Assembly: GCA_964016885.1 (NCBI GenBank) | Contig: OZ024743.1 | Span: forward strand, 320,478,001-320,542,000 | DNA from: Eledone cirrhosa | Taxonomy: Eukaryota | Direction: 5' to 3' | DNA length: 64,000 bases | Part shown: positions 1,928 to 61,565 of the stretch, one piece after another | Position numbering within the stretch: the stretch's first letter is position 1 | How the letters are laid out: every line of letters begins with the position of its first letter | The notes under the pieces: generated by a model | Databases searched by the model: none | What the model was told of the DNA's origin: nothing | What the model saw: only the letters and a program-made list of their open reading frames with translations | Translations under genes and position numbers: made by a program

Positions 1928-4900
1928 TGTTTCTTTATTAGTCACAGGGGTACAAAAGAAGGGGACAAATACAAAGAGGGAAGTTTACATACAATAAAAA
2001 ACGTGTAAAATGTTATCGCGAATGCAATTTAAAAAGTTAGTCGATTTTCCCCAATAGGGGGAGACAGTTTATATGGGTAACACATACCCCCGAAAAAATG
2101 TGCAACCCTCATCTCCAGGAGTACGAAGACTTTGTACCCATTTCCACTCTTCCTCTTTTTCCTCAACCTACAGGCTGATATAGAAAGAAGGCTCATTCAC
2201 TCGGGCCATTCTCGCCACTTTCACTCACCTTTCATAAAACTTGCTGGGGTACAGCACCTCTCTCTCCATCCTGATTCTTCTTCCAAAGTGGTATTTGAAA
2301 AAAAGAATCAGTTGTTGGCCGGAGAGAAAGGTGCCTGACCTCATCCCTTTTAACCTCGTCCATCATACAACCTATTTCGCCATAGCTATCACACAAAGGA
2401 AAACCGCCCCTCTCCTTCGTTTTTGAAGGAGGGTGGCGGTTTGATCATGACAATGGACACGGTGGTCAACCGGGTAGGTATCACCCGGACAGATCTTTTT
2501 CGAAGGGTCCCTGCCCGGGCGCCCATGTCTGTAGAGCTTGTCTCGAACTGGTAGAGCTCGTCGGTAGCACTGCCAGGCCAGGGACCTTTGCAAGTTGTCC
2601 ATCGGTCCCGGGCGGAAGGTCCTACTGAACAGACGGGTCAGTTCGTCTTCCTCTACGCCTAGAGTTTCTCCGAACGCGTCGTCGCACTTGCTGCGTATCA
2701 ACCCTCTATAGAATGACGAAGTAGAGTCTCCACTGATCGCCGGGTCCACCTGCCATAGGGCTGTGAGCGCCTGAGCACATTCGATGTGCCAGTCGCACAT
2801 TTTCCTCGGTCTTTGCTTGATCCAGGACTGGAGCTCGGTCAGGTTGTCCGGTCAGGAATACGTAGAGATGCCGCAGCCTGAGTGCGTGTTTTCGCATCAT
2901 CAGCCACGTCATCCCCATCCCTCCGTTGGCAGGGTGTTTCCAGCAGATGGATCTTCTCACCAGAGGATCCCACTTCTTCCAAAGGAATTGGAAGAGCGCG
3001 TGCTCCATTTTGGTGATTGTTTCGGCTGGACAAGGCACGACGGTCAAGCGGTAGTAGATGACGGACGCTATAAAAGTGTTCGCCACCTCTGCTCGATCTT
3101 TCAAGGATAGTTTGCACTCTGCCCAGTTCTGGGTGAGTGCAAACACCTTGGCCGTCATCTCGTTCCAGTTTTTCTCCACCTGAAGGTCTGGACCGAACCA
3201 GACCCCGAGCAATTTCATCGGTCCGTCCGTCCAGCGTCCTTCGACGCTATCAGACGTCATCGGCTTGCCTCTCCACGTACCGAGTTGCAAACCGACAGAC
3301 TTGTCCGGGTTTAGTTTTGCTCACGTCAGCGTTTCGTATACCTTCAGTAAGGTGCCGACTTCCTCGATTTCCGAGGGGCTCGACACCATTACTGTGACGT
3401 CGTCGGCGTAGGCCGACGCCGCTTTTTGCAGTCCCGGTTCCGGTTCTAGAGAGATTCCCTGCAATAGCTCCAACTTCCGCAGTAGTGGCTCGAGTGTCAG
3501 TACATACAGAAGGGAGGAGACAGCGCATCTCTGTCGGATGGATCGCGTGATATGGAACGGCTCCGAGAGGTAGCCATTCACCTTGATCCTTGAGCAGATG
3601 TTGCTGTTGTGCATTGCAGCAATCCAGTCCCTGAACACGGGTCCGAAGCCTGCCGCCTCGAGCACCGCATCCAGGTAATGATTGTCAAACCTACCGAAAG
3701 CCTTAGACTGATCCAAGTTGATCAAGGCCCCACCGAAGCCAGGTTTACACCCACCCTCTCTAGGATGTATCGCATGAGGTGGAGGTTGTCGTGTATAGAC
3801 CTGGTCGGGATTGCGCATGTCTGCGCTTCTCCCACCAGGTTTTCGACGACAAGCGCCAGCCTCTTTGCCAACACCTTGGCCAAAATCTGTAACTCTGTTT
3901 TTAGCAAAGTTATGGGCGGGAAGTTGCCTATGTCATCCCCCTTATTCTCGAATTTCGTGGCTAGTGTGTCTACGTCCCTGGTCACAGAACTCAGAATTCT
4001 CCCGTCATGCTGCCAGTTTCAGGAGACTGGAGAACAAGTCCGGTATTGCTACGTAAAATTCGTAGGGTAGACCGTCGAGACCTGGAGATTTGCGCTTGCC
4101 GCATTGGCTCACCGCGTCCTATATCTCAGCGGCTGAAATCGGCTTTTCGCAGAACTTCGCCCTGCCGTCGGATAGTCGCGGTAGGCCGTCGAGGTATAGA
4201 CCGAAATCCATAGCACCTCCCGGCGCGCCGCCCTGCCCGAACAGCTGAGCAAAGTGCCGCTGAAAGGCCGCGCACATCTGCTTCGGCTCACGTATCACGC
4301 GTCCGTCTTGGTCCTTCAAAGACCGAATCGTGCACTTGTTTCCACTTTTCCCCTCCGTCACGCGGGCCCAGTTAACAGCTTTGGCTCCCTCGTACCCAGA
4401 GCACGTATTTTGCTTCTGACAACGCAACCCTTGTGCTTTGCGTCGAAGAACTGGTCCAAGGCCGTTCTCGTTGCTACCACACTGGCTACGTTGCCACTTC
4501 TAATTGTCTCTTCTACTTTATCTACCTGTTCCTTCTCGGTCCTATTTCTATCTAACGCTAATTCTTTACTAAAAACTAACGAGTCTAATGTAACTGCCAT
4601 CTTGAGAGAGTACCACCATCTGTTGTTGACAGTGGCCCCTGTCAAGTGTTCTTTAACTAAAGTGCTAATCCGTCTACTGTAGGCTTTGCATGTCGGTAAG
4701 GACAAGTTCAGCTTCCAGTAGTCGGGTCCTTGTCTATGGGTTCTATCAAGGTTGACCATGCAGGTCACTAGTTTGTGATCTGAATAAGCAACCATGAACA
4801 TTTGTGGACAGATTAACATGTCCCTATCCTTATTTCTAACTAGAACCCTATCTAGGTACGATCTAGATGTTCCGCTACGATTAGTCCACGTCCACAGTTG

Positions 4901-5794
4901 CACAGTCGGAAAATCTATATCGGCCAGGTCAAATCGGCCAATTAACTGTTTGGGGTTGTTACCCCCCCCCATTATAGGGACATGCGCCCACATAGTCCCA
5001 ACGTGCATCTAGGATTCCATTCCAGTCCCCCACTAAAAGCAAGGAGCGGCACGTTCCCAGAAAAGTCTCTAGACGTTTGAAGATGTCTGGACGCGGTGTC
5101 CCGGATGGGGCATATGCGGCCACCAGCCTGAAGGCTCCACCTTCACCACCGTCGACGTCTAGGACCACCAGTCGAGCCTCCAGGTCCAGATGTACCGTCT
5201 GTGTTACGAGGTCCAGGTGTTTCAGCAGCAAAACGGCAACCCTGCCCCCACCTCCCGGCTGACAGAGAGATGCGTAGATCTGAAAGTCATCGAAGATGTG
5301 GGCCAGATGTCGCTCGCTGTGGATCCTGGACTCGCAAATGGCTACTACATCCATAGTGCGCGACCTGAGATCGTTTAAGAGTTTGACCTGTTTCCAGGAC
5401 TTCCCCAGGCGGCGTACGTTCACACATCCAACTCTTATGTTAGCCATGTTGGTGCTGAAAAGTTAAAAGAAGAGGAAAAGAAATCACTCACTTTTTCGTC
5501 TCCAGGGGACCAGGCTGCACGATTTCCATGGGGGTGTTGGAGGGGTTGTCTGGGTGGGTGGTGATTTCCGGCGGGGTGGGGACAGAGATGTTTGGTGGGG
5601 AGGGGTGCCTGGTGGGATGGGGGTGTCTGGGGTGGGGAGACATTTGAGAAGGACGCGGTTAAGTGGTTTAATGCAGGAATTCCCCACATCCTTTTCAAAT
5701 GTTTCTTTTAGGGACCTATAAGTTTGTATAGGGACCCTAATCAGCTTTTTGTTATTTTTAATAGAGTGGGTGAAAGTTTTCCCTTCAAAGGTTA
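1928..5794 (-). mobile_element. Tx1-like LINE (copy A), 5'-truncated within ORF1; ORF2 (APE-RT) pseudogene from ATG 5447 to ~2170
   Basis: APE motifs (GCVNVRRL, AICESR, LLVGDWN, YLDRVLV, YSDH) and RT motifs (PITLL, LDQSKAF, AYADDV, KLLGVWFG) spread over frameshifted ORFs. 3' UTR has AATAAA. Confidence 0.92.
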
Positions 5795-6418
5795 CTTATT
5801 ACTAATTATATCTAATGTTTCTTCTCTCTTCATAATGTACTTTATAGCTCTGATACTGAATCAGTCTAATCCATTCGGATAGTTCTGTCCCAGTTATTCA
5901 TAGAGCAACATCGGTTGAGGTTGACACCACTAACACAGGGATATGTGTGGATATATTCATGTATATGTATGTGTCCGCATGTATCTGTGTGTTTCTCTCT
6001 ATATATTGTTTATAACTCCCTTTGGTCGAGTAACCTTTGAAGTGTAGTGACTGCTGGATAGCTACCATTACTGATACTTCTCGCCTCCTCAAACCACCTC
6101 TTCTACGGCTTTGATATGAATACCCCCTCAGCCTCCGTGGTATTTTTTTCAGGGTTATAAGGGGCTTAGCTCTGTTTCTTGACCGCTGTATCACGTTATT
6201 GACTCTCCCTCCGCCTTTTCGAGATTCTATCTCGCGCATTGCAGATAATGAGATATCCCCTTGATAAGTCGGCAGAACCTCACAAAAACTCTATATCTCT
6301 ATGATCTAGTGTTTTTACATAATATGCCACCAAACTACGTAGTCGGGGACTGAAGAACCAGCTAGGTATGATATATCTTATTACTAATTATATCTAATGT
6401 TTCTTCTCTCTTCATAAT

Positions 6419-6778: not shown

Positions 6779-7726
6779 TATAAGGAAAATAAATCGAAAA
6801 TGCAAATGGAATCTTTTTAAGAATATTTATTTGTTTCCTTTACCGGTTTCACAGTTCTTATGCTTTTCAAAAGTAGAATTGAGATGGAGAGTTTGTGGTT
6901 TTTCTCAGATGTTACTTCTGTTTTATGTGGAAAAAAGTGACTCGAATTGCTAGTTTTCTTTCTTATATTTTGGTTGGTTGATGACTGTCACGTGAATAAG
7001 TACATCAACTTTCGCGCCAGTCGCGTTTGAGGGTTCTTTAGTGTCATTTTCACTTTAAAAAAGTGGCTCAAATTATTGTTTTTATAAGTGTAATTTGGTT
7101 GGTTGATGACTGCCACGTGAATAAGTATATTAAATTTCGTTTCAAACAAAATATAATGTACAAGAAAAGGGAAGAGGAGAAAACGTTCAGTGAGCATGGC
7201 TAATGTGCTGAGGTATCAAAATTCAGACTTTCTATTGAAATAAATTGAATGTTTGTGTCGAGAGCGGTGGTTGTGGCGGCAGAGTAGAAAATAGAGATAT
7301 ATATTTTTATTTGTGTGCGGATGTGTGTTTGTGTGTATGTATGTGTGTAATGAGTGTGTGTGTGTATGTGTGTGTGTGTGTAGGAAAATGATTCTATTAG
7401 TTGAAATGGAGAAAGATGTTATGTTTGTGTGTGTATGTGTGCGGTATGGTGAGCATGTTAAGGTGTTAAAATATTAACGTATGTTGAAGTATATTCAGCT
7501 CTTGTCCTTTATTTTCGAATATAAAATAGGGTGTTATGTGTGTGTATGTATGTGTCTGTGTGGATGGTTAGCATGTTATGGTGTTAATATATTAATGTAT
7601 ATTAAACCATATTTAATTCTGGTCTATATTTTTGAATAAACATATTTTCCTTATTTATTCGTATTTGGTCTGTTGTATTGTCAGTGCGAAGATAGAGTGG
7701 GAAGACTTGGAATTTGGGTGTCTTAT
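6779..7726 (-). repeat. 3' pseudo-LTR of PLE-A
   Basis: Near-identical to 11040-11997; includes the GIY-YIG C-terminus and 3' UTR. Confidence 0.9.
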
Positions 7727-10700
7727 CTCTTGCGCATATGTCTAGATGTACACTGAGTGGTCTTGAGGTATAGTCTCGTAATTGTTGACGATGAATTGTC
7801 ATTCTGTTTCTGAGCATGAGTTTAGTTTGACCTATATAATCTTCATTGCATCCTTTACATTTAATGGCATAAAGTACATTTTTTGATGTGCAAGTGAAGT
7901 GACTTTTCACAACAAAATGTTGTCCTGATTGAAATGTATACATGGTACCTTCAATGAGGAGAGTACAAGTTTCGTAATTAGAGGGACCACACTTTTTGAC
8001 AGTTGGTTGTGGGGTTGTGGTGGGTAAATTGGCATTGGTGAGTAATGTTTTTTAGTGATTTAGGTTTTCTTTTGCTTTTGATTATTTTGTGTTTCAGGTA
8101 CTTTTTTCATTCTTGGGTCTTGTCGCAATAGTGGGATGTTCTTGTGAATAATTTTATATGCTTCCGTATTTCTTGGGTTGTGTGTTGAGATATATGATAG
8201 AATATTGGACGTACCTTAAATTTGTTTTTGTTTTCGTAATTCATCAATGACTATTGCTTTAGCCCTTTCTATTCCCTTATCTGATAGTAACGGTGGGTAC
8301 TGTCTTTCGAGCAGAATTTCCTTTAATTCTTGAAGTCTTTTATTTCGCGTTTCATAATTGGAGACAATTGTGCAAATTCTTCTTGCTATATTAAAAGGGG
8401 CGTTCGTCTTCGTGTGCTTTGGATGGCTGGAGGTGAAGAGCAGGTATTTCTTGGAATCTGTTAGTTTTTAATGGATGTCAGTTTCAATATTTGTGTCTTT
8501 TTTTATGATTAAGATGTCCAGAAATGGGAGTTGGTCTTGACTGTATTCCATTGTAAATTGGATGTGGTTATTGATGCTGTTAATTAAATTGTTGGAATCA
8601 TTTAGTTGGTCGAGTGTGTGAGACCATAGAATAAGACAGTCATCCAAGTTGCGTTTCCAATTCTCTGATAAATATTTATGGAAGTTCAAGACGTATTTTG
8701 ATTTGGAATTACAAGTATGCCATGACTAAGTTAGCGTAAGTTGGAACGACTTTTGTACCCATCGCAGTCCCCGATATTTGTTTGTAAATGCTGCCATCAA
8801 AATCAAAAAAGTTGTTCTGTGAAATAAATTTTAATCCCTCGGTGATGAAGCCTTTTTCTATTCTGTCCGGTATCTCATTGGGGAATTTTTCTAGCCAGAA
8901 TCCTATTGCTTCTAGTCCGTGTTGGTGTGGGATCGTCGTGTAGAGATTCACTACATCGAAAGACACAATAATAGTGTCGTTGCTGACATGTTTGGGGAGG
9001 TGGTTTAAGAGGTCCAAGTCGTCTCTTACAAGGCTTAGTATGTGTTTGAGAATTGGTTTTAGTAGTATGTCTATAAAGTTGCTCCTTCTGTGAGTTTCAC
9101 ATTGTGTGCCCGCTACATTTGGTCTTAATTTAAGATCAGTGGGGTGTTGTGTGTTTACACAGGTTGAGGTGGATTCTTTACAGGCATCGTTAATTGTTTT
9201 ACACTTGTGGATCTTCGGAAGTCCGTAAAGGTTGATGGTTTTGTATTCAAATGTGTTACATAATCGCGTTCCTTTTTAGTTCTCTTTCTGGTATTGACAA
9301 ATGAATGCGTTTAATCTGGTCACCTTTTTTGATTGCTGGTAGTTGTTTACTTTTTCATAGTAGTTAGTGTCTTGTAAGAGAGAGAATATAGAATTTTTAT
9401 ACTGTTCAGCATCCATAATGATGACAGTACTTCCCTTGTACGCTTCCTTAATTACAATGTCAATATTGTTTTTTTAATGTATGGATAATTTCCCATTCCC
9501 TTCGGCTAGTGTTGGGTTTGGGTTTAGATTGTGGTAGTTCATGGTATGGGAAAGTTGATACGTGGTTACAACATTTGTCAAGAACTCTGTTCCTGCCCTT
9601 TGTTGGGTTGTAGCTGCTTTTATTCAGTACAATTGATTGTTCGTTAGTCTCCTTATCAAAACATTCCTCTGTTTGACTAATTTTCTACAGAAGTCTGAAA
9701 TATCATCGTTTATCTCATTGAGGTTAGAGTATTGAGGTGTTTGTGTGAATTTCAGTCTCTTTGAGAGAATTTTAATTTCTTGGGCTGAGAAGTTTGAAAT
9801 TGAAAGATTGGCTATTTTCGGTTTTTCTAAATCGGTTTGTGCCACCAGATGTCGTGGGTCCTGTAGCCTTGGTCTAAAAAATGATTTTTCTGAAATGTTT
9901 ATTCATGTGTATTACTATATCTAATGGCATTTTCCCTGTTGTTGTGTGGTCTTGTATAGAAGTTTCGGACGTATTGAGGTTCGGTTTGTTGATGGTCCGG
10001 ATTCTAATTTTTGTTCCGTTGTGTGGGTTGGAATCTATGATTTTAGAACAGGTTCTGTGTGGTTTGGGGTCTACGGTTTTGGAACAGGTTTTGTGTGGGA
10101 TGTGATCAGCGGATCGGGTCCTGTCTTGTGTGAAGGGGCATTTAGGTTTTTTTTAGTAAGGTTAAAGTTTTGTCTATGGATTCTTGGATTATCGTCATAT
10201 TTTTTCTGGGGGTATGTTGGATATTTTGTTGCTTTTTTTGTTGTTTGTTATGAGTTTGGTGTGTGAATTTCATTTTGTTTTAAAAATGGGGTACCTGTAT
10301 GGTGTTTGTTTTTGAAAATAATTTCGTAGTTGTTGAAGCAAGTGGCGTTTTTATTCCCATCGTTAAAAGGATGTTGGTTCTTCGTCCTCACAATTTTCTT
10401 ACCAAAGTTTGAAGCTTTTTTTCATAGAGTAGGCCTTCGGAGTGCGTTGAGATTTCGGTTTCCATCTGTTGGTCGAGTAACTTGAATTTTTCTTCGTTGG
10501 AGTTGGCTCTTAACCGCAACAGTTCTATTTCTATTTTAAACTTTTCTAAGGCCATCTTTTCCCTAAGATTTGTTGGTTTTCTGGTTCATTCGGGATGGGT
10601 TTTATTTGGAGTTTTTTGGGGAGGATGATTGGGGTAGAGTTTAGCCACGTTTCATATATATCTACTTTTCCATTATTTTTTAGGAGATTCCAAAAGACAA

Positions 10701-11039
10701 ATTTGCGAGCTGTGAGCTTTTGAGTCCATATATGGTTTAGGGTGTTTTTCAATGAGTGGACTTCTCGTAGATGGGTTCTAATGGTTGTTCCAGATTTTGG
10801 AGCATTGCTGTTTCAATTATTTTGATCAGTTTGGTATATGTTGGAGTAATATCCGTCTCTTGGGTATTTTCTCCTTTTTCATGGAGTCCTTTTTTGTAGA
10901 TATGTATTTGGTCTACTTTGTTCATTTAAGATGTCCTTGTTGAGACTTTGGTGGCATTGTCGGTCCCCGTGTGGTGGGTGTGAGTAAGAAAGTGAGTGGG
11001 GGGTAAAGAAAAAAGTGAGATGTCCTACACGAGTGAAAG

Positions 11040-11997
11040 TATAAGGAAAAGAAATCGAAAATGCAACTGGAATTTTTTTAAGAATATTTATTTTTTTCCT
11101 TTACCGGTTTCACAGTTCTTATGCTTTTCAAAAGTAGAATTGAGATGGAGGGTTTGTGGTTTTTCTCAGATCTTACTTCTGTTTTATGTGGAAAAAAGTG
11201 GCTCGAATTGCTTGGTTTTTCTTTTTTAATAATTTGCTTGGTTGATGACTGTCACGTGAATAAGTACATCAACTTTGGCGCCAGTTCGCGTTACAAAGTT
11301 TTAAAAAAATGGCTCAAATCTTTGTTTTTTTCTTATAAAAGTGAAATTTGGTTAGTTGATGACTGTCATGGGAATAAATACATCAACTTTCGCGCCAGTT
11401 CGTATTTGACATTTTCACAGTCACATGATTTGTCATAGAGGGTTTTGTGCCAAACAAAAAATAATGGTCAAGAAAAGTGATGAGGAGAAATCGTTCTGGT
11501 TCAGTGAGTATGGCTGATGTGCTGAGATGTCAAAATTCAGACTTTCTATTGAAATAAATTGAATGATTGTGTCGATAGCGGTGGTGCTGGCGGCAGGGTA
11601 GAAAATAGAGATAATTATTTTTATTTGTGTGCGGATGTGTGTTTGTGTGTGTGTGTGTAGGAAAATGATTCCATTAGTAGAAATGGAGGGGGGTGTTATG
11701 TTTGTGTGTGAGGTATGGTTAACCTGTAAAGGTGTTTAAATATTAACGTATGTTGAAGTATATTTAGCTCTGGTCTTTTATTTTCGAACATAGAAGAGGG
11801 TGTTATGTGTGTGTGTATGTATGTGTCTGTGTGGATGGGTAGCATGTTATAGTGTTAATATGTTAATGTATATTAAACTATATTTAATGCTGGTCTATAT
11901 TTTTGAATAAACATATTTTCCTTATTTATTCGTATTTAGTCTGTTGTATTGTCAGTGCAAAGATAAAGTGGGGCGACTTGGAATTTGGGTGTCTTAT
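11040..11997 (-). repeat. 5' pseudo-LTR of PLE-A
   Basis: Direct repeat of 6779-7726. Confidence 0.9.
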
Positions 11998-23800: not shown

Positions 23801-26650
23801 GGGGCCATCGTCAACAACAAGTTTTTGGTGTGCTCTTAAAAGAGCGAGTAGAATAGAGTCCATTGGGTTTAGTAAGGCATTAGCAATGGAGAAAAATAGA
23901 GCAGAGGGAGAACTAGTTAGAAAATTACACGAGGCGCTTAGCAAAGGCATCGCGCCCGAGGTACTAGCGACGAGATTGGCCCTTGACCAATTCTTCAATG
24001 CAAAGCACGAAGGCTGCGTTGTCAGAGCTAAGGTGCGTGCTCTCAGATACGAGGGGACGAAAGCCGTTCAATGGGCCCGAGTGGCGGATGCGCATCGTGG
24101 CAACAAAGCCACGATCCGGTTTTTGGTGGACCACGACGGGCGCATGCTACTCGATCCCAGGCAAATGTGTGAAGCTTTTCAGCGAAATTTCGCACAGCTG
24201 TTCGTGGGCAGCGGCGGGCCGGAACGAGGGATGGACTTTAGTGTCTACCTCGACGGACTGCCGCGGCTCCCGGCCACTGAGGCGGAGCATTGCGAAAAGA
24301 CGATAACAGCCGCTGAAGTACGGGAGGCAATGACTGGCTGCACAAGCGGTAAATGCCTGGTTTGGATGGTCTGCCCTATGAACTTTACGTACAGATGCCA
24401 GACTTGTTCGGAGGCCTCTTGGCGGACGTCTACTGCAACTGGCAACAGAACGGGAGAATTCCCACCTCTGTGAGCCGAGGAGCTGTGGCGCTGCTGAGAA
24501 AGGATCCGAACAATGGGGATAACAGATAATTTCAGGCCCATAACTCTGCTAAACACAGAGTTCAAGAATTTGGCCAAAGTGCTAGCAAAGAAGTTAGCGC
24601 TTGTCGTTAGTGGTCTGGTTAGGAGAGGCACAGACATGCGCCATTCCCGACAGATCCACCCACGACAACCTCCACCTCATGCGATACATCGTAGAGAGGG
24701 TAGCTAGGGAACCTGGCACGGGTGGGTCCTTGATCAATTTAGATCAGTCGAAAGCTTTCGATAGGGTCGACCATCATTACCTAGCGGCAGTCCTGAGGGC
24801 GGCTGGCTTTGGGCCAGTCTTCAGAGGCTGGATCGCTGCCATGCACAGCGATATCTGCTCTGTGGTGAGAGTGAACGGTCACCTTTCGGAACCGTTCAAC
24901 ATCATGCGCTCGGTCCGCCAAGGATGTCCCCTCGCGTCCCTATTGTACGTATTGACTCTCGAGCCATTACTGCACAAACTGGAGATGTTGAGGGGGGTCC
25001 CGCGCGAACTAGGATGCGGAAGATCCGTGTCAGCATATGCCGACGATGTCACCGTAGTGGTGTCGAACGCCAAACACATCGAGGCGATCGGCACTACACT
25101 AAGAGAATACGAAGCGGTGACAGGAGCAATGATCAACCAGGAAAAGTCAGTGGGCCTGCAGCTCGGCACCTGGAGAGGCAGGTCCATGCCGTCCAACAGC
25201 GTCGTCGGGCGCTGGACGGACGGACCGGTTAAATTGCTAGGGATCTGGTTCGGTCCAGACCTCCAGACGGACAACAACTGGGACGAGGTGACGAGCAGGG
25301 TGGCTTCTCTCACCCAGAAATGGGCCGAGAGGAAGCTATCCCTGAAAGGTCGAACGGAGGTGGCTAGCGCGTACATCGCGTCCGTCATCTACTACCGCCT
25401 GACCGTCGTACCTTGTCCTAAGCCCCGCCTGACTGAGCTGGAGCGTTTGCTCTTTCGCTTCTTGTGGAAGGGACGCGCTCCGATGGTCAGGCGGTCCATC
25501 TGCTGTCAACACCCGCTACGTGGAGGGCTGGGCATGCCGTGGCTGATGATGCGCAGACACGCGCTCAGGCTACGACATCTCCACCTCTTCCTCGACGGTG
25601 ATCAGGTGTGGTCGCCGTTTGCTAGACAAGTTTTTTTCCCAGCTCGTCTCCTTGACGGTACTGCAGTCCTGGGTCAAGCGAAGACCGAGAGGGAGCGGTT
25701 GGACACTGGAATGTCTACAGCCGCTCACAGCCCTCGACCAATCGGGCAATGTGATCGGTGGAAACTCCACCTTGGCGTTCTATAGAGGATTAGTGGAGGG
25801 GAAGAGCGACGACGTACTTGGAGAAACTCTAGGCGTCGACGAAAATCAACTAGCCAATCTCTTCGGAAGGACTTTCGGGCCGGGGCCTATGGACAACTTC
25901 CAGAAATCCCTGGCCTGGCAGTGCTACCGGGGTGCTTTGCCAGTTCGGGATAAACTTTACAGGCATGGAGGTGCCGTCAGCCGGGCATGTCCGAGATGCG
26001 CACAGGGCGACGAAACCGTCCTGCACGCACTCGTCCAGTGTCCGAGCATTGCTGACTTGTGGGTTTATGTCGAACACCTGCTGTCACGTGTAGGACGGAT
26101 CCAGCTATCAGCTTAGTCCATCGTGAGGATTGCCCCGCCCTCTTCCTTTAGCTGGGAAGGGCAGGCAGTTTTTATCTGTCTGGTGGCCATGGCGAAAGAG
26201 ATAGTATGGTGGACACGTTTGAAAGGGCTGAAGACGAGCACTTACCTCTTCGGTGATGCCCTGATTAACTTTTTCAAATTTCATCTGAAAAGGAAAATCA
26301 GGGTAGAGAGGGAAGGGCTCTCTTCCCAGCATTTTGTTGAAAGGTGGGTGAGAGAAGCAAGTATGGCCCGAATGAATGGGCCTTCTCTGAGTATGTGTCT
26401 GTAAATTAAAGGTGGAAGACTGGGAGAGGGCACTTGCCCTGGTGGTCAGGGCCACTGTGGTCTTTTAATGGGCTTTCTCCACAAATGTCCCTCGGAAGTC
26501 TCCCCCCTATTGGGGAATTTTTCTTTGTTATTTTATTTCATCCACTGTTTTTTTTTACACGCAGAAATGACCATTTGTACCGTCCTGTATTGTCCTGTAC
26601 TGTCCTTAATGTCTACTTTATGTAAACCCTTGTGGTTAATAAAGAAAACA
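20847..26650 (+). mobile_element. Tx1-like LINE (copy C), full length but disrupted: ORF1 21228-22849, ORF2 22986-26404
   Basis: ORF1 knuckle-like VEGRRPRC..THLRAFC; APE (GSINARGL, LVGDWN, SYLDR); RT (LDQSKAFDRV, VRQGCPL, AYADDV); C-terminal CPRC..ETVLHALVQC. (TTA)n on both sides. Confidence 0.95.
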
Positions 26651-26679
26651 TTATTATTATTATTATTATTGTTGTTATT

Positions 26680-29600
26680 CCTTGAATCTCAGTCATTGAT
26701 GTTGGTTAACTGGAAAGTCCGTTGGATTGAATATCAAGCCACTACCTGCAGCCTCAGATATTCAGGACGTATCGGAGGGTTCTTGCTGTTCCAAGCAAGC
26801 ATGCTTTTTGAAGCGTTCCAAAAAGCGTGAAGGGGCCGATTTTCTTTAACCATCCCTGGAAACTTTTGGAGATAGTCCCCAGTGCGCCTATGACAATCGG
26901 GATCACTTTGACTTCATGGCAGTTCCAAATCCTTTTCACCTCCCACTTTAGGTCCTGGTATCGGTTAATTTTCTCCCTCTCCTTCTCTTGCACTCTCGTG
27001 TCGAACGGGCAGGCCACATCCACAATCAGGCACGATCTTTTTTCTTTGTCCACAACCACCAGGTCAGGTCTATTGTGTTCCATTTTTTGTCCGTCTGTAT
27101 CCTAAAATCCCACAGCACCTTCACCTGATTGTTCTCCATCACCGCCTCTGGCCTATGCTCATACCATTTCTCAGAATGTGGTAAATTGTTTACTTTGCAC
27201 AGGTGCCAGTGGATCACCCTGCCCAACACATCGTGTCTCCAGCCCTTATAGTGGGTCTGGGCTAGGTGTTTACACTCGGACACAATGTGAGCCACAGTCT
27301 CCTCTCTCTCTCCACAGATCCTGCACAGTGGGCTAGCCTCCTCCTTGTAGATATGGTGCTTCAAACACTTCGTTTTGAGGGCCAGCTCCTGCGCAGCCAT
27401 TAGCATTCCTTCTGTAGCCTTTTTGAGGTCTCCTCTTCTCAACCAGTTCCATGTCTGTGGATCTCTAAATTCAGTTTTCTCAAAGAAGGTACTATGAAGG
27501 GATTTTCCCTTAAGGCTGCACTTCCTCCTTGATGTTATTTCCTCCTTGGACATCCCCTGGCCTACTGTCCCCTCCTTCAGTACAGTTCTGAGCATTGGCT
27601 CCTTACTATAGGTCACGTATTTGTATAGGTTGTTTTTCTCCATCTGAACACAGTCCTCTATGCTGATAAGACCTCTTCCACCCTCAGATCTCCTTAGGTA
27701 GAGTCTATCGACATCACTCCTCTTGTGGAACATGTTGTAGATAGTCAATAGCTTCCTAGTCTTCCTATCCATTTCTTTTTGTTCAGCAACATTCCATCTC
27801 AGTATTCCCGCACTGTACCTAATAATAGACACAGCTCGGGAATTTACTGCGCTTATGGCATTTCTGCTGTTCAGATGTGACTTAAATACGCTCCTTACTC
27901 TCCGAATGTATTCAGTTCTTAACAATTCCTTCATTTTTTTGTTCTTTATGCCATCAGCCTCCAGAACGCCCAAATACTTGTATCCTTCCTCAGAGTCAAT
28001 TTCCTTTATCATCTCACCTGTTGGTATCTGGATCCCGTTACTTCTGCTCAACCTACCCCTCTTCATCACAATGACTCCACATTTACCAATACCAAACTGC
28101 ATACATATATCACTGCTGAAAATACGGACAGTGTCAACAAGCACATCCAACTCCTTCTCACTTTTCCCGAAGAGCTTAAGATCGTCCATGAAGAGGAGGT
28201 GATTGATGGTAAGCTCTCCCCTTCCCAACTTGTATCCTGCTCTCACTTTTCGCAGCATAATGGTCAAGGGCATCAGGGCAAGGACAAACAACAGAGGGGA
28301 CAGGCTATCTCCCTGGAAGATACCTCTCTTGATCTTCACGCTTCCCAAGGATACTCCAGTTGATGTCAACTCTGTCTCCCAGGACCCCATACTCCTGCCT
28401 AGCAACTGTCTGATGTTATCTGCCACCCTGAAGATCTCCAGGCTTTTGGTGATCCAGGAATGAGGCACCATGTCAAATGCCTTTCTGTAGTCTATCCATC
28501 CCATGGCAAGATCAGTGTGTCTCCTCCTGCAATTCCCCATTACCATCTTATCAATAAGTAACTGGTCCTTTGTATCACGTGACTTCTTTCGGCATCCTTT
28601 CTGTTCGTCCGGTAACAAGTTGTTTGTGTGGAGGTGATGGTAGATTTCCTCAGACACAATGCTCGTCAACAGTTTCCACATTACGGACAGACATGTGATA
28701 GGTCTATAGTTGGTAACATCATTACCCTTGATTCGGTCTTTCATTATCAGAACTGTGGTACCTTTTGTCAACCACTCTGGCACCTCACCCCACACCAAGC
28801 AGTCATTGAACATGGCCGTCAGCTTCGGGTGGAGGGATGTTAAATGTTTAATCCAATACCCCTGCACACCATCTGGGCCTGGTGATTTCCAGTTGGTTAG
28901 TTTTTTGGCCTGCCCCTTAAGAGTTTCAACTGTGATACTCAAATCAGTTTGTTGTTGTGCCTGCTCACCGATCTCCCTCTGTACTGTCTCAATCCACCCT
29001 GCCTGGGCATTGTGTCTAACATCCTGCTCCCATATTCCTCTCCAGAACGTTTTAGTTTGCTCCGCCCCAGGGATCAAGTCGTTGCCTCTTTCTTTCCCCT
29101 CAAGCTATCCAAACAGCATCTTCTGGTTGTTGTCGAACATGCGGTTCTGTTTATACTGACTGACTCTGTTCTCGTATCGCCTGATTTTTGCACTCTTTGC
29201 TACAATGCGTTGCTTCAGTTCCTCTATGATAATATTTAGCTTTTTCCTCCTAGTTTTGTATTTTATTTCCAGTCTATTTTTAGTGCCTATGTTTTTTAGT
29301 GTCCCATTCAGTAGTGACTCAAGCTTTCCTATGTCATTTCTCATTTCCCCGATTTGCCCACTCAGTCGCTTCTTCCACCACGGCTCTGCTCTTTCTTGTC
29401 TGTTGTTTCCTCTCGCTTTTATACCAAGTAGTTTCCTCACCGTATTTGCTGTTGCTTTGAGGATATTGTTGCACTGGTGAAGGCTCCTCGCCTCAAGGTA
29501 TGGGATGACTTTGTTTACCTTAGCTGTTGTTTCTTTTAACTTTTTCCTGTCTACAAATCTTAGGTTCATAGGTCTCCCACTATCATTGTTCAATTCATCT

Positions 29601-30260
29601 ACCACTAAATTTAGGATGTCAACCGAATCTTGTCCTAGCCCGTCAGCATTCATCTCCTCAGTGGCCGTATCTCTGTTCCAGGTATTATTTATCTCAGTAT
29701 TCAGATCATTGTCTGCTTCGGGTGGTTCCTCCGTTCTCAGGACCTCTTCACCTTCATTTCCCACTGGCTCGCTTGTCTGGCATACTACACCCGCCATCTC
29801 CAAGCCATTCTCTCTGCTCAGTTCCTCCAGTTCCAGCTCGCTTATCTATCCATTAGTTCTTATTACCCGAGCCTGCCCGGCCAATTTTTGTTCATCTAAT
29901 TTAAATAAACCAATCTCGTTCCAGATGTTATGCATCCGTCTCCTGTAGCCCCTCTCCTTGGGGTTACTTTTCAGGTAACATTGCATAACAGTTCTATTCA
30001 ATTCTTTCGTCCAGTTGGTTCTGGCCCCTTTCCTTCTTCTCCTTCCTCCAACATCAGCAGTATTTGGTTGACAGTCAGGTTCCTGCTGCTGAGCTAGGGG
30101 TCACCTGCTGGGTGAGAGTCTGTCACATGACGTTCTAGTCTCCATTTCACCGTTATTCGAACTGTTTATGTTCGATATTTAAACACTCTTATCAAGGATT
30201 GGCGAATGTATGGTTACATATCCATCTGTGGATCCGCCATTCCACTTGGCCCTTGTGTGG
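26680..30260 (-). mobile_element. Dong/R4-clade LINE copy 1, 5' UTR truncated, ORF broken by stops and frameshifts
   Basis: Near-identical to the intact ORF 30390-33782; split at ~27083, ~29105 and ~30095. Flanked by (TAA)n. Confidence 0.93.
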
Positions 30261-30261
30261 A

Positions 30262-30297
<36 letters not shown>

Positions 30298-30389
30298 TAT
30301 ATTGTTATTGTTATTCCTTGAATCTCAGTCATTGATGTTGGTTAACTGGAAAGTCCGTTGGATTGAATATCAAGCCACTACCTGCAGCC

Positions 30390-33300
30390 TCAGATATTCA
30401 GGACGTATCGGAGGGTTCTTGCCGTTCCAAGCAAGCATGCCTTTTGAAGCGTTCCAAAAAGCGTGAAGGGGCCGATTTTCTTTAACCATCCCTGGAAACC
30501 TTTGGAGATAGTCCCCAGTGCGCCTATGACAATCGGGATCACGTTGACTTCATGGCAGTTCCAAATCCTTTTCACCTCCCACTCTAGGTCCTGGTATCGG
30601 TTAATTTTCTCCCTCTCCTTCTCTTGCACTCTCGTGTCGAACGGGCAGGCCACATCCACAATCAGGCACGATCTTTTTTCTTTGTCCACAACCACCAGGT
30701 CAGGTCTATTGTGTTCCAGTTTTTTGTCCGTCTGTATCCTAAAATCCCACAGCACCTTCACCTGACTGTTCTCCATCACCGCCTCTGGCCTATGCTCATA
30801 CCATTTCTCAGAATGTGGTAGATTGTTTACTTTGCACAGGTGCCAGTGGACCACTCTGCCCATCACATCGTGTCTCCAGCCCTTATAGTGGGTCTGGGCT
30901 AGGTGTTTACACTCGGACACAATGTGAGCCACAGTCTCCTCTCTCTCTCCACAGATCCTGCACAGTGGGCTAGCCTCCTCCTTGTAGATATGGTGCTTCA
31001 ACCACTTCGTTTTGAGGGCCTGCTCCTGCGCAGCCATTAGCATTCCTTCTGTAGCCTTTTTGAGGTCTCCTCTTCTCAACCAGTTCCATGTCTGTGGATC
31101 TCTAAATTCAGTTTTCTCAAAGAAGGTACTATGAAGGGATTTTCCCTTAAGGCTGCTCTTCCTCCTTGATGTTATTTCCTCCTTGGGTATCCCCTGGCCT
31201 ACTGTCCCCTCCTTCAGTACAGCTCTGAGCATTGGCTCCTTACTATAGGTCACGTATTTGTATAGGTTGTTTTTCTCCATCTGAACACAGTCCTCTATGC
31301 TGATAAGACCCCTTCCACTCTCAGATCTCCTTAGGTAGAGTCTATCGACATCACTCCTCTTGTGGAACATGTTGTAGATAGTCAATAGCTTCCTAGTCTT
31401 CCTATCCATTTCTTTTTGTTCAGCAACATTCCATCTCAGAATTCCCGCACTGTACCTAATAATAGACACAGCTCGGGAATTTACTGCGCTTATGGCATTT
31501 CTGCTGTTCAGATGTGACTTCAATACGCTCCTTACTCTCCGAATGTATTCAGTTCTTAACAATTCCTTCATTTTTTTGTTCTTTATGCCATCAGCCTCCA
31601 GAACGCCCAAATACTTGTATCCTTCCTCAGAGTCAATTTCCTTTATCATCTCACCTGTTGGTATCTGGATCCCGTTACTTCTGCTCAACCTACCCCTCCT
31701 CATCACAATGACTCCACATTTACCAATACCAAACTGCATACATATATCACTGCTGAAAATACGGACAGTGTCAACAAGCACATCCAACTCCTTCTCACTT
31801 TTCCCGAAGAGCTTAAGATCGTCCATGAAGAGGAGGTGATTGATGGTAAGCTCTCCCCTTCCCAACTTGTATCCTGCATCCACTTTTCGCAGCATAATGG
31901 TCAAGGGCATCAGGGCAAGGACAAACAACAGAGGGGACAGGCTATCTCCCTGGAAGATACCTCTCTTGATCTTCACGCTTCCCAAGGATACTCCAGTTGA
32001 TGTCAACTCTGTCTCCCAGGACCCCATACTCCTGCCCAGCAACTGTCTGATGTTATCTGCCACCCTGAAGATCTCCAGGCTTTTGGTGATCCAGGAATGA
32101 GGCACCATGTCAAATGCCTTTCTGTAGTCTATCCATCCCATGGCAAGATCAGTGTGTCTCCTCCTGCAATTCCCCATTACCATCTTATCAATAAGCAACT
32201 GGTCCTTTGTACCACGTGACTTCTTTCGGCATCCTTTCTGTTCGTCCGGCAACAAGTTGTTTGTGTGGAGGTGATGGTAGATTTCCTCAGACACAATGCT
32301 CGTCAGCAGTTTCCACATTACGGGCAGACATGTGATAGGTCTATAGTTGGTAACATCATTAACCTTGATTCGGTCTTTCATTATCAGAACTGTGGTACCT
32401 TTTGTCAACCACTCTGGCACCTCACCCGACACCAAACAGTCATTGAACATGGCCGTCAGCTTCGGGTGGAGGGATGTTAAATGTTTAATCCAATACCCCT
32501 GCACACCATCTGGGCCTGGTGATTTCCAGTTGGTTAGTTTTTTGGCTTGCCCCTTAAGAGTTTCAACTGTGATACTCAAATCAGTCTGTTGCTGTGCCTG
32601 CTCACCGATCTCCCTCTGTACTGTCTCAATCCACCCTGCCTGGGCATTGTGTCTAACATCCTGCTCCCATATTCCTCTCCAGAATGTTTTAGCTTGTTCC
32701 GCCCCAGGGATCAAGTCGTTGCCTCTTACTTTCCCCTCAAGCTGTCCAAACAGCATCTTCTGGTTGTTGTCGAACATGCGGTTCTGTTTATACTGACTGA
32801 CTCTGTTCTCGTATCGCCTGATTTTGGCACTCTTTGCTACAATGCGTTGCTTCAATTCCTCTATGATAATATTTAGCTTTTTACTCCTAGTTTTGTATTT
32901 TATTTCCAGTCTATTTTTAGTGCCTATGTTTTTTAGTGTCCCATTCAGTAGTGACTCAAGCTTTCCTATGTCATTTCTCATTTCCCCGATTTGCCCACTC
33001 AGTCGCTTCTTCCACCACGGCTCTGCTCTTTCTTGTCTGTTGTTTCCTCTCGCTTTTATACCAAGTAGTTTCCTCACCGTATTTGCTGTTGCTTTGAGGA
33101 TATTGTTGCACTGGTGAAGACTCCTCGCCTCAAGGTATGGGATGACTTTGTTTACCTTAGCTGTTGTTTCTTTTAACTTTTTCCTGTCTACAAATCTTAG
33201 GTTCATAGGTCTCCCACTATCATTGTTCAACTCATCTACCACTAAATTTAGGATGTCAACCGAATCTTGTCCTAGCCCGTCAGCATTCATCTCCCCAGTG

Positions 33301-33782
33301 GCCGTATCTCTGTTCCAGGTATTATTTATCTCAGTATTCAGATCATTGTCTGCTTCGGGTGGTTCCTCCGTTCTCAGGACCGCCTCACCTTCATTTCCCG
33401 CCGGCTCGCTTGTCTGGCATACTACACCCGCCATCTCCAAGCCATTCTCTCTGCTCAGTTCCTCCAGTTCCAGCTCGCTTATCCACCCATTAGTTCTTAT
33501 TACCCGAGCCTGCCCGGCCAATTTTTGTTCATCTAATTTAAATAAACCAATCTCGTTCCAGATGTTATGCATCCGTCTCCTGTAGCCCCTCTCCTTGGGG
33601 TTACTTTTCAGGTAGCATTGCATAACAGTTCTATTCAATTCTTTCGTCCAGTTGGTTCTGGCCCCTTTCCTTCTTCTTCTTCCTCCAACATCAGCAGTAT
33701 TTGGTTGACAGTCAGGCTCCTGCTGCTGAGGCAGGGGGCACCTGTTGGGTGAGAGTCTGTCACATGACGTTCTAGTCTCCAT
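30390..33782 (-). CDS. 1130-aa RT + CCHC + restriction-like endonuclease protein (R4/Dong)
   Basis: KSPGPDG, YRPITCL, IDYRKAFD, GIFQGDSLSP, LFMDDLKL, CRICGEREETVAHIVSEC, RHD, RPDLVVVD..IVDVACP..EKINRY. Confidence 0.95.
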   Translation of the reverse strand: METRTSCDRLSPNRCPLPQQQEPDCQPNTADVGGRRRRKGARTNWTKELNRTVMQCYLKSNPKERGYRRRMHNIWNEIGLFKLDEQKLAGQARVIRTNGWISELELEELSRENGLEMAGVVCQTSEPAGNEGEAVLRTEEPPEADNDLNTEINNTWNRDTATGEMNADGLGQDSVDILNLVVDELNNDSGRPMNLRFVDRKKLKETTAKVNKVIPYLEARSLHQCNNILKATANTVRKLLGIKARGNNRQERAEPWWKKRLSGQIGEMRNDIGKLESLLNGTLKNIGTKNRLEIKYKTRSKKLNIIIEELKQRIVAKSAKIRRYENRVSQYKQNRMFDNNQKMLFGQLEGKVRGNDLIPGAEQAKTFWRGIWEQDVRHNAQAGWIETVQREIGEQAQQQTDLSITVETLKGQAKKLTNWKSPGPDGVQGYWIKHLTSLHPKLTAMFNDCLVSGEVPEWLTKGTTVLIMKDRIKVNDVTNYRPITCLPVMWKLLTSIVSEEIYHHLHTNNLLPDEQKGCRKKSRGTKDQLLIDKMVMGNCRRRHTDLAMGWIDYRKAFDMVPHSWITKSLEIFRVADNIRQLLGRSMGSWETELTSTGVSLGSVKIKRGIFQGDSLSPLLFVLALMPLTIMLRKVDAGYKLGRGELTINHLLFMDDLKLFGKSEKELDVLVDTVRIFSSDICMQFGIGKCGVIVMRRGRLSRSNGIQIPTGEMIKEIDSEEGYKYLGVLEADGIKNKKMKELLRTEYIRRVRSVLKSHLNSRNAISAVNSRAVSIIRYSAGILRWNVAEQKEMDRKTRKLLTIYNMFHKRSDVDRLYLRRSESGRGLISIEDCVQMEKNNLYKYVTYSKEPMLRAVLKEGTVGQGIPKEEITSRRKSSLKGKSLHSTFFEKTEFRDPQTWNWLRRGDLKKATEGMLMAAQEQALKTKWLKHHIYKEEASPLCRICGEREETVAHIVSECKHLAQTHYKGWRHDVMGRVVHWHLCKVNNLPHSEKWYEHRPEAVMENSQVKVLWDFRIQTDKKLEHNRPDLVVVDKEKRSCLIVDVACPFDTRVQEKEREKINRYQDLEWEVKRIWNCHEVNVIPIVIGALGTISKGFQGWLKKIGPFTLFGTLQKACLLGTARTLRYVLNI

Positions 33783-34351
33783 TTCACCGTTATTCGAACT
33801 GTTTATGTTCGATATTTAAACACTCTTATCGAGGATTGGCGAATGTATGTTTACATAGCCATCTGTGGATCCGCCATCCCACTTGGCCCTTGTGTGGCAT
33901 TATCACCACGCTGTATACGGACACACATAAACAAACAAACACACGGGCAGAAAGGGCCCCAAAAATGAATAAGCATAAGTTTCATTGTAATGTAGTATTC
34001 GAATGTCTGACTTAGTTTTTGTTTTTTAAGTTTTACTTTTTCCCCCCTCTTCTCTGTCCGTCCGCCTGCTTCTCTCTTCATTCTTATTTTCTTTACGTTT
34101 CTGGGGTTTCTTTTTTTGTTTTTGTTTTTCTCTGTTTTTCTCGTTTTTTACTGTTGTTGCTGTGCTGCTTTTGTTGTTTGTTTTTTCTTTTTTCTCTTGA
34201 GTCTATCTATATATTTTGATGCCTTCCTCTTTGTTAGTAGTAGGAATTCTATAATGTGGAAGTGGTAGCCAGCAGAGACTGGCGGCGTTGGCGATACTGA
34301 GACAGTGGTGGTGGTGATGTCGATACCGAGGCAGTGGTGGCGGTGATGCGA

Positions 34352-34997
34352 CCGTATTACTGTAGTGATGGTGCTGTAGCGGTGGCAGCAGCAGTGAAGG
34401 AGTCAAGGGGTGGTGGCGGCGGTGATGGGATAGTGGTGGTAATGATGGCCGTAGTGAGCGGTGGCGGTGAAGGTGAAAATGCTGTTGTGTTTAGTGTACA
34501 CAGATGATGGGGTGGGTGGTGTATCTAGTTTCTGGTGTTGGTGAGTTTCGCTGTCCTATATAGTGTAGCCAGAGGAGAGGAGGGGGGGGGGTTCTTCTTC
34601 TTCCATTTATAGCCATTTTATTTTTTTTTTTTTTGGATATACAGTGTACAATACAAAGTTGAATATTTGAATATTTGAGCCGTATTACTGTCGTGATGGT
34701 GCTGTAGCGGTGGCAGCAGCAGTGAAGGAGTCAAGGGGTGGTGGCGGCGGTGATGGGATAGTGGTGGTAATGATGGCCGTAGTGAGCGGTGGCGGTGAAG
34801 GTAAAAATGCTGTTGTGTTTAGTGTACACAGATGATGGGGTGGGTGGTGTATCTAGTTTCTGGTGTTGGTGAGTTTAGCTGTCCTATATAGTGTAGCCAG
34901 AGGAGAGGAGGGGGGGTTCTTCTTCTTCCATTTATAGCCATTTTTTTTTTGGATATACAGTGTACAATACAAAGTTGAATATTTGAATATTTGAGCC
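34352..34997. repeat. Tandem duplication (~328-bp period) in the Dong 5' UTR
   Basis: CCGTATTACTGT... starts at 34352 and again at 34680; both units end in GAATATTTGAGC. Confidence 0.9.
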
Positions 34998-35162
34998 TTA
35001 TAACAATATATTTTGGGTCCGAATTTTTTTTGGGCTGAAGCCGGGTGCTTTACGTAGCATTTGTACTAAGAGTTGTTATTTCACAAATGATTTAAATATG
35101 TTAAAAATTCAAAACTTACGGGAGCGATTTCATGACCTCCGTCACCTCGTGCGTCTTCTTCC

Positions 35163-35163
35163 C

Positions 35164-35234
<71 letters not shown>

Positions 35235-35245
35235 GTTATTACTAT
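35163..35245. repeat. (TTA)n tract; similar tracts separate every array member (~20827, 26650, 30262, 38180, 40677, 46442, 47160, 53219)
   Basis: Direct read. Confidence 0.95.
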
Positions 35246-35246
35246 T

Positions 35247-38180: not shown

Positions 38181-38203
38181 ATTATTATTATTATTATTAT
38201 TAA

Positions 38204-38237
<34 letters not shown>

Positions 38238-38239
38238 GT

Positions 38240-40676: not shown

Positions 40677-40692
40677 TTATTATTATTATTAT

Positions 40693-46441: not shown

Positions 46442-46450
46442 ATTATTATT

Positions 46451-47158
46451 GCCAGTTCGGGATAAACTCTACAGGCATGGAGGTGCCGTCAGCCGGGCAT
46501 GTCCGAGATGCGCGCAGGGCGACGAAACCGTCCTGCACGCACTCGTCCAGTGTCCGAGCATTGCTGACTTGTGGGTTTATGTCGAACACCTGCTGTCACG
46601 TGTAGGACGGATCCAGCTATCAGCTGAGTCCATCGTGAGGATTGCCCCACCCCCTTCCTTTAGCCTGGAAGGGCAGGCAGTTTTTATCTGTCTGGTGGCC
46701 ATGGCGAAAGAGATAGTATGGTGGACACGTTTGAAAGGGCTGAAGACGAGCACTTACCTCTTCGGTGATGCCCTGATTAACTTTTTCAAATTTCATTTGA
46801 AAAGGAAAATCAGGGTAGAGAGGGAAGTGCTCTCTTCCCAGCATTTTGTTGAAAGATGGGTGAGAGAAGCAAGTATGGCCCGAATGAATGGGCCTTCTCT
46901 GAGTATGTGTCTGTAAATTAAAGGTGGAAAACTGGGAGAGGGCACTTGCCCTGGTGGTCAGGGCCACTGTGGTCTTTTAATGGGCTTTCTCCACAAATGT
47001 CCCTTGGAAGTCTCCCCCCTATTGGGGAATTTTTCTTTGTTATTTTATTTCAACCTCTGTTTTTTTACACGCAGAAATGCCCATTTGTACCGTCCTGTAT
47101 TGTCCTGTACTGTCCTTAATGTCTACTTTATGTGAACCCTTGTGGTTAATAAAGAAAA

Positions 47159-53945: not shown

Positions 53946-54193
53946 CAGTCTTGGCGCAAAATCAATTTTTTATTCACATGACCTCTACCGACCAATCAAA
54001 ATTGTTTTGACCACAAGAATTTTTGCAAACACCAAGTAGCGCTGGAGCCACTTTTTTAACATAAAAACAGTCTTGGCGCAAAATCAATTTTTTACATTCA
54101 CATGACCTCTACCGACCAATCAAAATTGTTTTGACCACAAGAATTTTTGCAACACAAAAGTAGCGCTGGGGCCACTTTTTTAACATAAAAACA
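53946..54193 (+). repeat. 122-bp tandem module x2 in the 5' pLTR of PLE-B
   Basis: Units start at 53946 and 54068. Confidence 0.92.
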
Positions 54194-54427
54194 GGTAGAA
54201 TTCCAAAAACTAATCAGATCAGAGCAAACAACACGGACACTCTATCTCAAAATTATTTTTGAAAAGCATTTAGAAATGCGCAACCGGTAAAAACTTAAAA
54301 ACTTAAAACCACAACTGAATACTAACCCATACAATTACTAATACTCTTTTATTCCTAATTAAACCATTTTTCAACTGTGAACAATTTGTCAGCATTTTCT
54401 ATTCCGTTTACCAATATATAATAACTT

Positions 54428-55792: not shown

Positions 55793-55929
55793 CACAAGAC
55801 AGGGAGGAGAAACCGATTGTAATAAAAATTATCAATCTTACTAGTGCAGAACCAACACCCAACCTTATCAACTTACTCTCCAAAGGTCTTAAATTCACAC
55901 CGACCCCACTACGTCCTAACTACTATGAA

Positions 55930-61527: not shown

Positions 61528-61565
61528 GCCAACAATGTTTCGTCCTATTAAGGACTCATCAGGGC
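61528..61565 (-). ncRNA. Minimal type I hammerhead ribozyme, canonical core
   Basis: GCC-CUGAUGA-GUCCU UAAU AGGAC-GAAA-CAUUG-UU-GGC, followed by UAAUAAA. Confidence 0.88.

Follow-up and report, generated by a model that had tools for sequence, protein, structure and literature searches.

How does a Penelope-like element (PLE) make its reverse transcriptase (RT) when the RT frame is not that of the ORF lying upstream? The question is raised by an element on the minus strand of a 64,000-nt stretch of the Eledone cirrhosa genome (assembly GCA_964016885.1, contig OZ024743.1, positions 320,478,001 to 320,542,000), hereafter the window. Canonical endonuclease-bearing (EN+) PLEs are described as single-ORF elements (PMC8557442, PMC3846280, PMC4209133, PMC6515669), a description repeated in the PMC8557442 preprint, PMC5408684, PMC6431247, PMC5537684 and bioRxiv 2026.07.22.740005, at least in the accessible portions of these sources. 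The family to which the window element belongs has two ORFs, offset by -1 and overlapping at a heptamer, U-UUU-UUA, that is fixed in sequence and phase, and its domain content is that of an EN+ PLE. We argue below that the window element is very probably a decayed member of a two-ORF lineage of EN+ PLEs, in which a programmed -1 frameshift at the conserved heptamer would produce an ORF1-RT-endonuclease fusion.

The window element

The heptamer occupies positions 9881-9875 of the minus strand, within CAT TTT TTA GAC (9883-9872), which in the ORF1 frame reads H-F-L-D, as the first-pass annotation had it. The frame that carries the RT start (ILSKRLKFTQTP), open from 9902 to 9624, is indeed at -1 to it. 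Within the 3.36-kb element, the sense strand has no other U-UUU-UUA; across the whole window, the same heptamer occurs 10 times on the minus strand and 30 times on the plus strand. ORF1 (9812-10957, minus strand) has decayed through internal deletions, frameshifts and stops (38% to the ORF1 of a second family, family 2 below, by tblastn), and a TAA at 9901-9899 closes the H-F-L-D frame six codons before the His. ORF2 (7602-9902, minus strand), in the -1 frame, encodes the RT, a C-X4-C-X2-C linker and a GIY-YIG domain, and is likewise broken. With both ORFs disrupted at several places, this copy is a decayed fossil from which alone a programmed site is not demonstrable, and other copies are needed.

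Two further features pointed out at first pass fared less well on comparison. The stop 15 codons past the Asp is there (TAG, 9829-9827, minus strand) but is a change peculiar to the window copy and the duplicate closest to it, the family having a sense codon at this place and its ORF1 stop, in intact copies, at the position corresponding to 9814-9812 (minus strand). The hairpin proposed as a stimulator (9841-9867, minus strand) does fold, 7 nt 3' of the heptamer, but no better than shuffled sequence (-7.1 kcal/mol, where shuffles average -7.3; z +0.11, 106 of 200 shuffles of the 45 nt being as good), which leaves its stimulatory role unsupported; its 3' arm is different in most copies of the family.

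The element is flanked by pLTR-type repeats. Upstream, at approximately 11040-11997 (minus strand), lies a partial-tandem repeat made of another copy's 3' end and pLTR, self-BLAST aligning 11040-11600 with 6779-7286 (77%) and 11677-11997 with 7400-7726 (89%). Downstream, a 3' UTR and a second pLTR (approximately 6779-7601, minus strand) end in a short TA run. Each pLTR contains a minimal hammerhead-like motif (11098-11136 and 6837-6875, both minus strand) predicted from pattern only; the upstream one has a palindromic helix III and a U3-A8 core, a variant described in PMC4209133, and its stem II is damaged in the window copy. Pattern matching finds such pLTR motifs in four families, whose stems differ, and others lie outside both elements of the window, at 61562, 17443 (minus) and 17081 (plus), one of them with a canonical core. 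Rfam scans of six related loci returned neither a hammerhead nor a frameshift element, only microsatellite noise. The 5' leader contains a candidate 80-nt intron (11025-11104, minus strand; GT, pyrimidine tract, AG; read by eye), the layout of which recurs in young copies. In both families represented in the window, the pLTRs carry repeated blocks (11395-11240 and 7025-6975 on the minus strand, 54010-54090 on the plus strand) with motifs that resemble E2F and CCAAT consensus sites, and a cell-cycle-timed promoter is possible. Elsewhere, the window harbours several copies of another, GC-richer retroelement (2100-5800 on the minus strand; 24600-26300, 43300-46800 and 50600-52800 on the plus strand), with an AP-endonuclease-like N-terminus as read by eye, and, at 26650-41000, four head-to-tail copies of a repeat of ~3-5 kb that are 72-99% alike.

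The heptamer in the host genome

Searching the host genome (3.0 Gb, 1796 contigs) yielded 60 loci of the window element's own family, family 1 (L001-L030 and L061-L090), and the heptamer is exact in 54 of them: in 24 of the 30 found by junction DNA, the other six being off by one base or one T, and in all 30 of the younger ones found by ORF1 protein. Outside these 60, the junction is deleted in L105, and the first base of the heptamer is changed in L103. Majority stops leave the ORF1 frame uninterrupted between -1302 and +63. The -1 frame is free of them from -25 until the alignment ends, and its earliest majority ATG (+461) falls far inside the RT. Intact young copies have an ORF1 of 409 codons (400 aa) whose stop is 21 codons after UUA, an 88-nt overlap at -1, and an ORF2 of 775 codons (e.g. 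L104). ORF1 and RT are thus not in one frame in the family, since majority stops and intact young copies both keep the -1 offset. Copies sit at interior places of many contigs, several with TA runs beside them. Near-identical copies of both window elements (L001-L004 and L031-L032; G000:C4, 319.9-320.8 Mb) occur within 0.6 Mb and share private changes, pointing to local duplication or assembly doubling.

The second element of the window (54259-58077, plus strand) belongs to family 2, its ORF1 being broken and its ORF2 open for 784 codons (55723-58077). One base of its heptamer place (55753-55759) departs from the family: position 55754 is C instead of T, and T is also what four contig runs covering family 2 show there in nearly all of their depth. 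This family is young (best 150 matches 98-100% identical) and has the same four codons, an ORF1 of 455 codons stop to stop, the RT at -1, and an exact heptamer in 30 of 33 loci. In family 3 (ORF1 of 427 codons), the heptamer is followed by GGG and is exact in 14 of 16 records; in family 4 (476 codons), it is followed by AC and is exact in 20 of 20, both totals counting records, re-fetched places included. Family 5, with one copy, has the heptamer as well. Further searches of the same genome recovered what are seemingly the same families, by places and frame lengths, and L265-L288 stand outside these counts. The RT/ORF2 proteins of families 1-3 share 55-57% identity, and every young family with intact ORFs has kept the -1 offset. 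Fused ORF1-RT frames exist in L036 and in L098-L100, the latter selected for long frames, and are due to single indels in base runs, each indel being different. In two of the contig runs (X1 and X3), depth over the family 2 pLTR (54170-54480) is ~100x that over the ORFs, a hint that solo or non-autonomous copies of pLTRs are very numerous, although depth does not measure copy number.

Relatives outside the host

An ORF1 profile retrieves 783 clusters (50% identity) at E 0.001, the best 150 of which are of at most 553 aa. Among the 77 relatives of at least 330 aa, 65 have Phe-Leu within their last 45 residues and 12 do not, compared with 7.2 of 77 expected from shuffling and with 3 and 5 of 77 in two upstream windows. 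The dipeptide has thus been kept although ORF1 tails are otherwise unalignable. At the DNA level, 114 contig loci were collected with an RT profile, five of which have ORF1 homology upstream, and all five have an in-phase heptamer in the overlap. Taking these five metagenome loci together with the five host families, an in-phase X-XXY-YYZ in a -1 overlap is found in ten of ten lineages with DNA. In a fast RT tree of the sequences of this analysis only, the eight heptamer-lineage RTs included group together with L117 (96% local support), the L117 contig having just 160 nt upstream of its RT.

The closest named protein relatives come from bivalves. Two mussel gene models (P0016 and P0120) have ORF1 and RT in one protein with the motif kept, and may reflect modelled introns or indel copies. 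P0162, P0178, P0186 and P0204 have Y-F-R or F-F where relatives have F-L, which are possible variant slip sites. The ORF1 profile had no match among viral and metagenome contigs, nor the RT profile among viral contigs. PLE sequences are also present at 38 loci of prokaryote genome assemblies (L187-L224), likely as host DNA binned with symbionts.

How is the RT frame expressed?

The heptamer is the one at which HIV-1 carries out its gag-pol -1 frameshift, and a comparable sequence of events can be envisaged here. Ribosomes would start at the ORF1 AUG, and the majority would terminate at the ORF1 stop, releasing the ORF1 protein, whose helical part is followed by a long low-complexity tail and which is likely to be an RNA-coating partner. 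In a minority, the Phe and Leu tRNAs would re-pair one base back and translation would continue as F-(L/F)-R into the RT, the slip setting a high ORF1-to-enzyme ratio. Tandem slippage on U-UUU-UUA would account at once for the fixed codons, their phase, the -1 offset, and an ORF1 tail that is open yet unconserved. In line with this reading, GxKF is within 80 aa of the called start in 105 of the 107 RT relatives with the motif (proteins of 426-1357 aa were searched). No conserved downstream hairpin was found with loci folded singly and pseudoknot-free, z being between -0.8 and +0.2 in families 1, 2 and 4 (-0.79 over 70 nt for the hairpin region of a young family 1 copy), and positions +6 to +55 of family 2 folding at 0 kcal/mol. 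In L111, and in a single window of L115, z falls below -3.

The serious rival is splicing, in which the U-run and the AG would form a splice acceptor and an RNA skipping all or part of ORF1 would make the RT. A G directly follows the heptamer in nine of the ten lineages, giving a U-rich AG, and the tenth (family 4) has a CAG in the same phase 6 nt on; spliceosomal introns are known in PLEs (PMC4209133); and in family 2, an ATG lies 11 nt before a possible 5' donor and would be in the RT frame after such a splice. That leader ATG, however, forms one side of the predicted hammerhead stem II and co-varies with the other side, and family 1 has a different stem II pair and an in-frame stop just upstream. 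No phase-2 donor inside ORF1 is shared by the four families, family 1 having none, and the G-GGU-UUY lineage described below lacks a U-rich acceptor. At the protein level, 13 of 65 relatives have Y, P, N, W, H, F or L next after Phe-Leu, which makes an AG straight after UUA impossible. An acceptor would neither fix the Phe-Leu phase nor keep the ORF1 tail open; frameshifting needs that tail open up to the heptamer and splicing does not, so that an open but unconserved tail favours frameshifting. We therefore regard splicing as unlikely. The four genomic-looking contig runs over family 2 contain no joint at the heptamer, which has no bearing on this point.

Separate translation of ORF2 from a start codon ~30 nt past the heptamer, whether through reinitiation or internal initiation, draws on an ATG in family 3 and a GTG in family 1 at the same place, and on several of the closest database RT proteins being called from 22-30 aa before GxKF. 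Database starts are, however, the choices of gene callers. We consider this route decidedly improbable, because an in-frame ATG between the heptamer and the first RT motif exists in just one of ten lineages (family 3, 34 nt downstream), because four lineages have no ATG, GTG, CTG or TTG at all in that interval, including families 2 and 4, which are young and have many intact copies, and because the fixed heptamer and phase would be left unexplained. Polymerase slippage on the U-run, adding or dropping a base during transcription, would be in keeping with a homopolymer, with single copies that have five or seven T, and with the fused frames of L010, L027 and L036. Six bases are few for transcriptional slippage, and both the constancy of the X-XXY-YYZ phase and the existence of the G-GGU-UUY variant agree with re-pairing tRNAs and not with a slipping polymerase, making this explanation very hard to credit. 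Equally far-fetched, and largely refuted, is the idea that the offset arose through decay of one long ORF beside a chance heptamer: the window copy is broken at many places and fused copies do exist, but site, phase and offset are alike in ten lineages and in 65 of 77 proteins, and young intact families all retain the offset. Tandem slippage at the heptamer is the reading that we retain.

A possible role for the ORF1 stop codon

If structure is not a shared stimulator, the distance to the ORF1 stop may offer a lead. Of 102 ORF1 relatives with a tail of at least 70 aa, 79 have Phe-Leu within 45 residues of their end, and in 27 of these 79 the Phe stands precisely 12 residues from the C-terminus, placing the stop 11 codons after the Leu codon; it is nearer in a single one. 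A geometric null expects ~3.5% at the 11-codon distance and 43-66% nearer. These counts are less than independent owing to the relatedness of the sequences: on a quick ORF1 tree of 67 rows, the 11-codon trait is clustered and needs eight changes, at least four of which are forced by well-supported branches. The ten residues between Phe-Leu and the stop are unalike among the relatives concerned. An 11-codon stop is seen at the DNA level in family 2 and L118. Elsewhere, the spacing is 21 codons in family 1 and 20 in family 3, both inside the first RT motif, 24 in family 4, 32 in family 5, and 2 in L115.

A contig-end artefact was considered for this mode, since 31-letter assembly words would likewise leave 10 residues past Phe-Leu, and was mostly rejected. 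A pearl-oyster model with such an end lies on a 68-Mb contig and another protein on a 1.1-Mb contig, and several 11-codon clusters have members of equal length on contigs of differing length; three of the 19 proteins looked up are on contigs under 1.6 kb and are doubtful.

In yeast, ribosome collisions at stop codons leave disome footprints of 58 and 61 nt, the latter being the more abundant in rich medium (PMC7784341), which correspond to ribosome spacings of 30 and 33 nt. With a 33-nt gap, a trailing ribosome would sit on UUU-UUA. The ORF1 stop, which in about one-third of relatives is one queued-ribosome length downstream, may thus provide the pause: a slowly terminating ribosome would hold the next one 11 codons back, with UUU in the P site and UUA in the A site. 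A pause of this kind would make RNA structure unneeded and let RT output rise with ribosome load, and family 2, with its 11-codon spacing, has no predicted structure after the heptamer. The spacings of families 1, 3, 4 and 5 and of L115 speak against such a model; that of 21 codons might, as a speculation, reflect three ribosomes queued at 33 + 30 nt. We put forward, tentatively and as something rather short of an even bet, that in a large EN+ PLE clade the ORF1 stop is itself the frameshift stimulator, a second clade having reached G-GGU-UUY separately.

A second heptamer and loci without one

That second clade is represented by thirteen loci from one contig set (L162-L183; e.g. L164:3641-3690), in which G-GGU-UUU/C ends an upstream ORF that has 357-431 codons in 12 of them and is broken in one. 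The stop is 1-3 codons past the last heptamer codon, and most of the loci have a predicted short hairpin that starts 6-9 nt further on (among 11 distinct junctions, 6 have z below -1.8), so that the whole looks like a textbook -1 signal. The RTs of these loci, which carry both linker and endonuclease, fall in a clade of their own, separate from the U-UUU-UUA RTs. ORF1 homology between the two clades is not significant (hhalign probability 0.13). This one may have come to -1 frameshifting separately, with an adjacent stop and a hairpin. In one member, L186, a pattern search found no heptamer.

Other loci show different arrangements. L139 and L140 have a -1 overlap without a canonical heptamer, their upstream ORFs being of 704 and at least 611 codons and overlapping the RT by 34 and 22 nt, with an ATG in the overlap; they may use stop-start coupling. 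ORF1 weakly resembles the N-terminus of the single-frame locus L128, at an E of 0.0025 in a tiny database. In L145, a single-frame PLE-like ORF has D-V-E-L-N-P-G-P, a match to the 2A/StopGo consensus, near its start, in an in-frame N-terminal extension upstream of 1756.

Relation to known elements

The RT has the GxKF and DKG motifs of the PLE type; its Pfam RVT_1 score of 29.4 bits narrowly misses the cut-off (29.6). The C-terminal GIY-YIG domain, in the RT frame, scores above the Pfam cut-off of 22.6 bits in both window elements (24.3 bits in the minus-strand one) and has CxxC cysteines between its two motifs, and the C-X4-C-X2-C linker between RT and endonuclease is present in families 1-3. 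ORF2 had no match among PDB sequences. ORF1 consists of a predicted helical N-terminal domain followed by a long low-complexity tail. Six long helices are predicted for a family 2 homologue (pLDDT 88), the best fold match of which (Z 8.8, rmsd 6.3, 124 aligned) is in the range of generic helical bundles; nothing specific was found in PDB or among viral models (0 viral matches at E 0.001), and pieces of the family 2 ORF1 had no Pfam match.

A CX2-5CxxC linker and a GIY-YIG at the C-terminus define Neptune/Nematis-type elements (PMC8557442). By its motifs the window element appears to be of Neptune type, its kind of linker being shared with Nematis, and it resembles these elements in GxKF, DKG, linker, GIY-YIG, pLTR-type repeats and partial-tandem layout, the repeats also bearing a predicted minimal hammerhead-like motif. 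It departs from the single-ORF description in that an ORF of its own, linked at -1, encodes the N-terminal part. Of the bicistronic, gag-pol-like Neptune lineage suggested at first pass, the two ORFs at -1 and the Neptune/Nematis-type motifs stand and the likeness to Gag does not: with an ORF1 predicted to consist of long helices throughout and no resemblance to a retroviral Gag found, 'gag-pol-like' describes expression logic only. The likeness to HIV-1 gag-pol lies in an identical heptamer, followed in family 3 even by the GGG, and in an expected excess of structural protein over enzyme, whereas most of the lineages here have no predicted stable stem-loop and their ORF1 has no viral fold match.

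Athena elements lack an endonuclease and are telomeric. An ORF1 and a frameshift were reportedly described for Athena/Terminon by Arkhipova and co-workers in 2017, and a helical ORF1 upstream and a frameshift before the RT would be the points in common; here, by contrast, a GIY-YIG is in the RT frame and copies are spread over many contigs. Two-ORF PLEs outside Athena also include Chlamys-2/5_cBra, which have an upstream zinc-knuckle ORF (PMC8557442) but belong to another clade, have a gag-like knuckle and, in the accessible part of that source, are not stated to use a programmed frameshift. According to the legend of Fig. 1 in the same paper, a frameshift with a pseudoknot can set ORF1 apart in PLEs, the clade being unnamed. 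Esterases occur in Neptune-like elements of fish and molluscs (PMC5408684), so extra coding parts in Neptune are already known. In SARS-CoV-2, the stop codon of the 0 frame tunes -1 frameshifting efficiency (PMC8168617); it differs in being 5 codons on and in its proposed role, which is to let the pseudoknot refold (PMC8168617), whereas the PLE mode is 11 codons and a queued ribosome is proposed without structure. The open literature text that was searched contains no statement of programmed frameshifting for Neptune or any other EN+ clade; there is an appreciable, if minor, chance that for Neptune such a frameshift has already been published or entered in Repbase.

Implications

The heptamer arrangement is real, conserved and widespread, and we infer that it works like a retroviral -1 frameshift from what the sequences have in common. 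EN+ PLEs are annotated as single-ORF elements, yet here are two overlapping ORFs with a heptamer kept across very distant relatives, in an ORF1 family that is large (783 clusters at 50% identity). Tools that expect one long frame will, as a result, treat intact elements as damaged or overlook the first of their genes. The 11-codon spacing provides a natural series in which dozens of unrelated sequences have a distance in common, which makes stop-codon queuing as a driver of -1 frameshifting in animals directly testable. If the slip is programmed, it would mean that relatives of telomerase set their ratio of structural protein to enzyme as retroviruses do.
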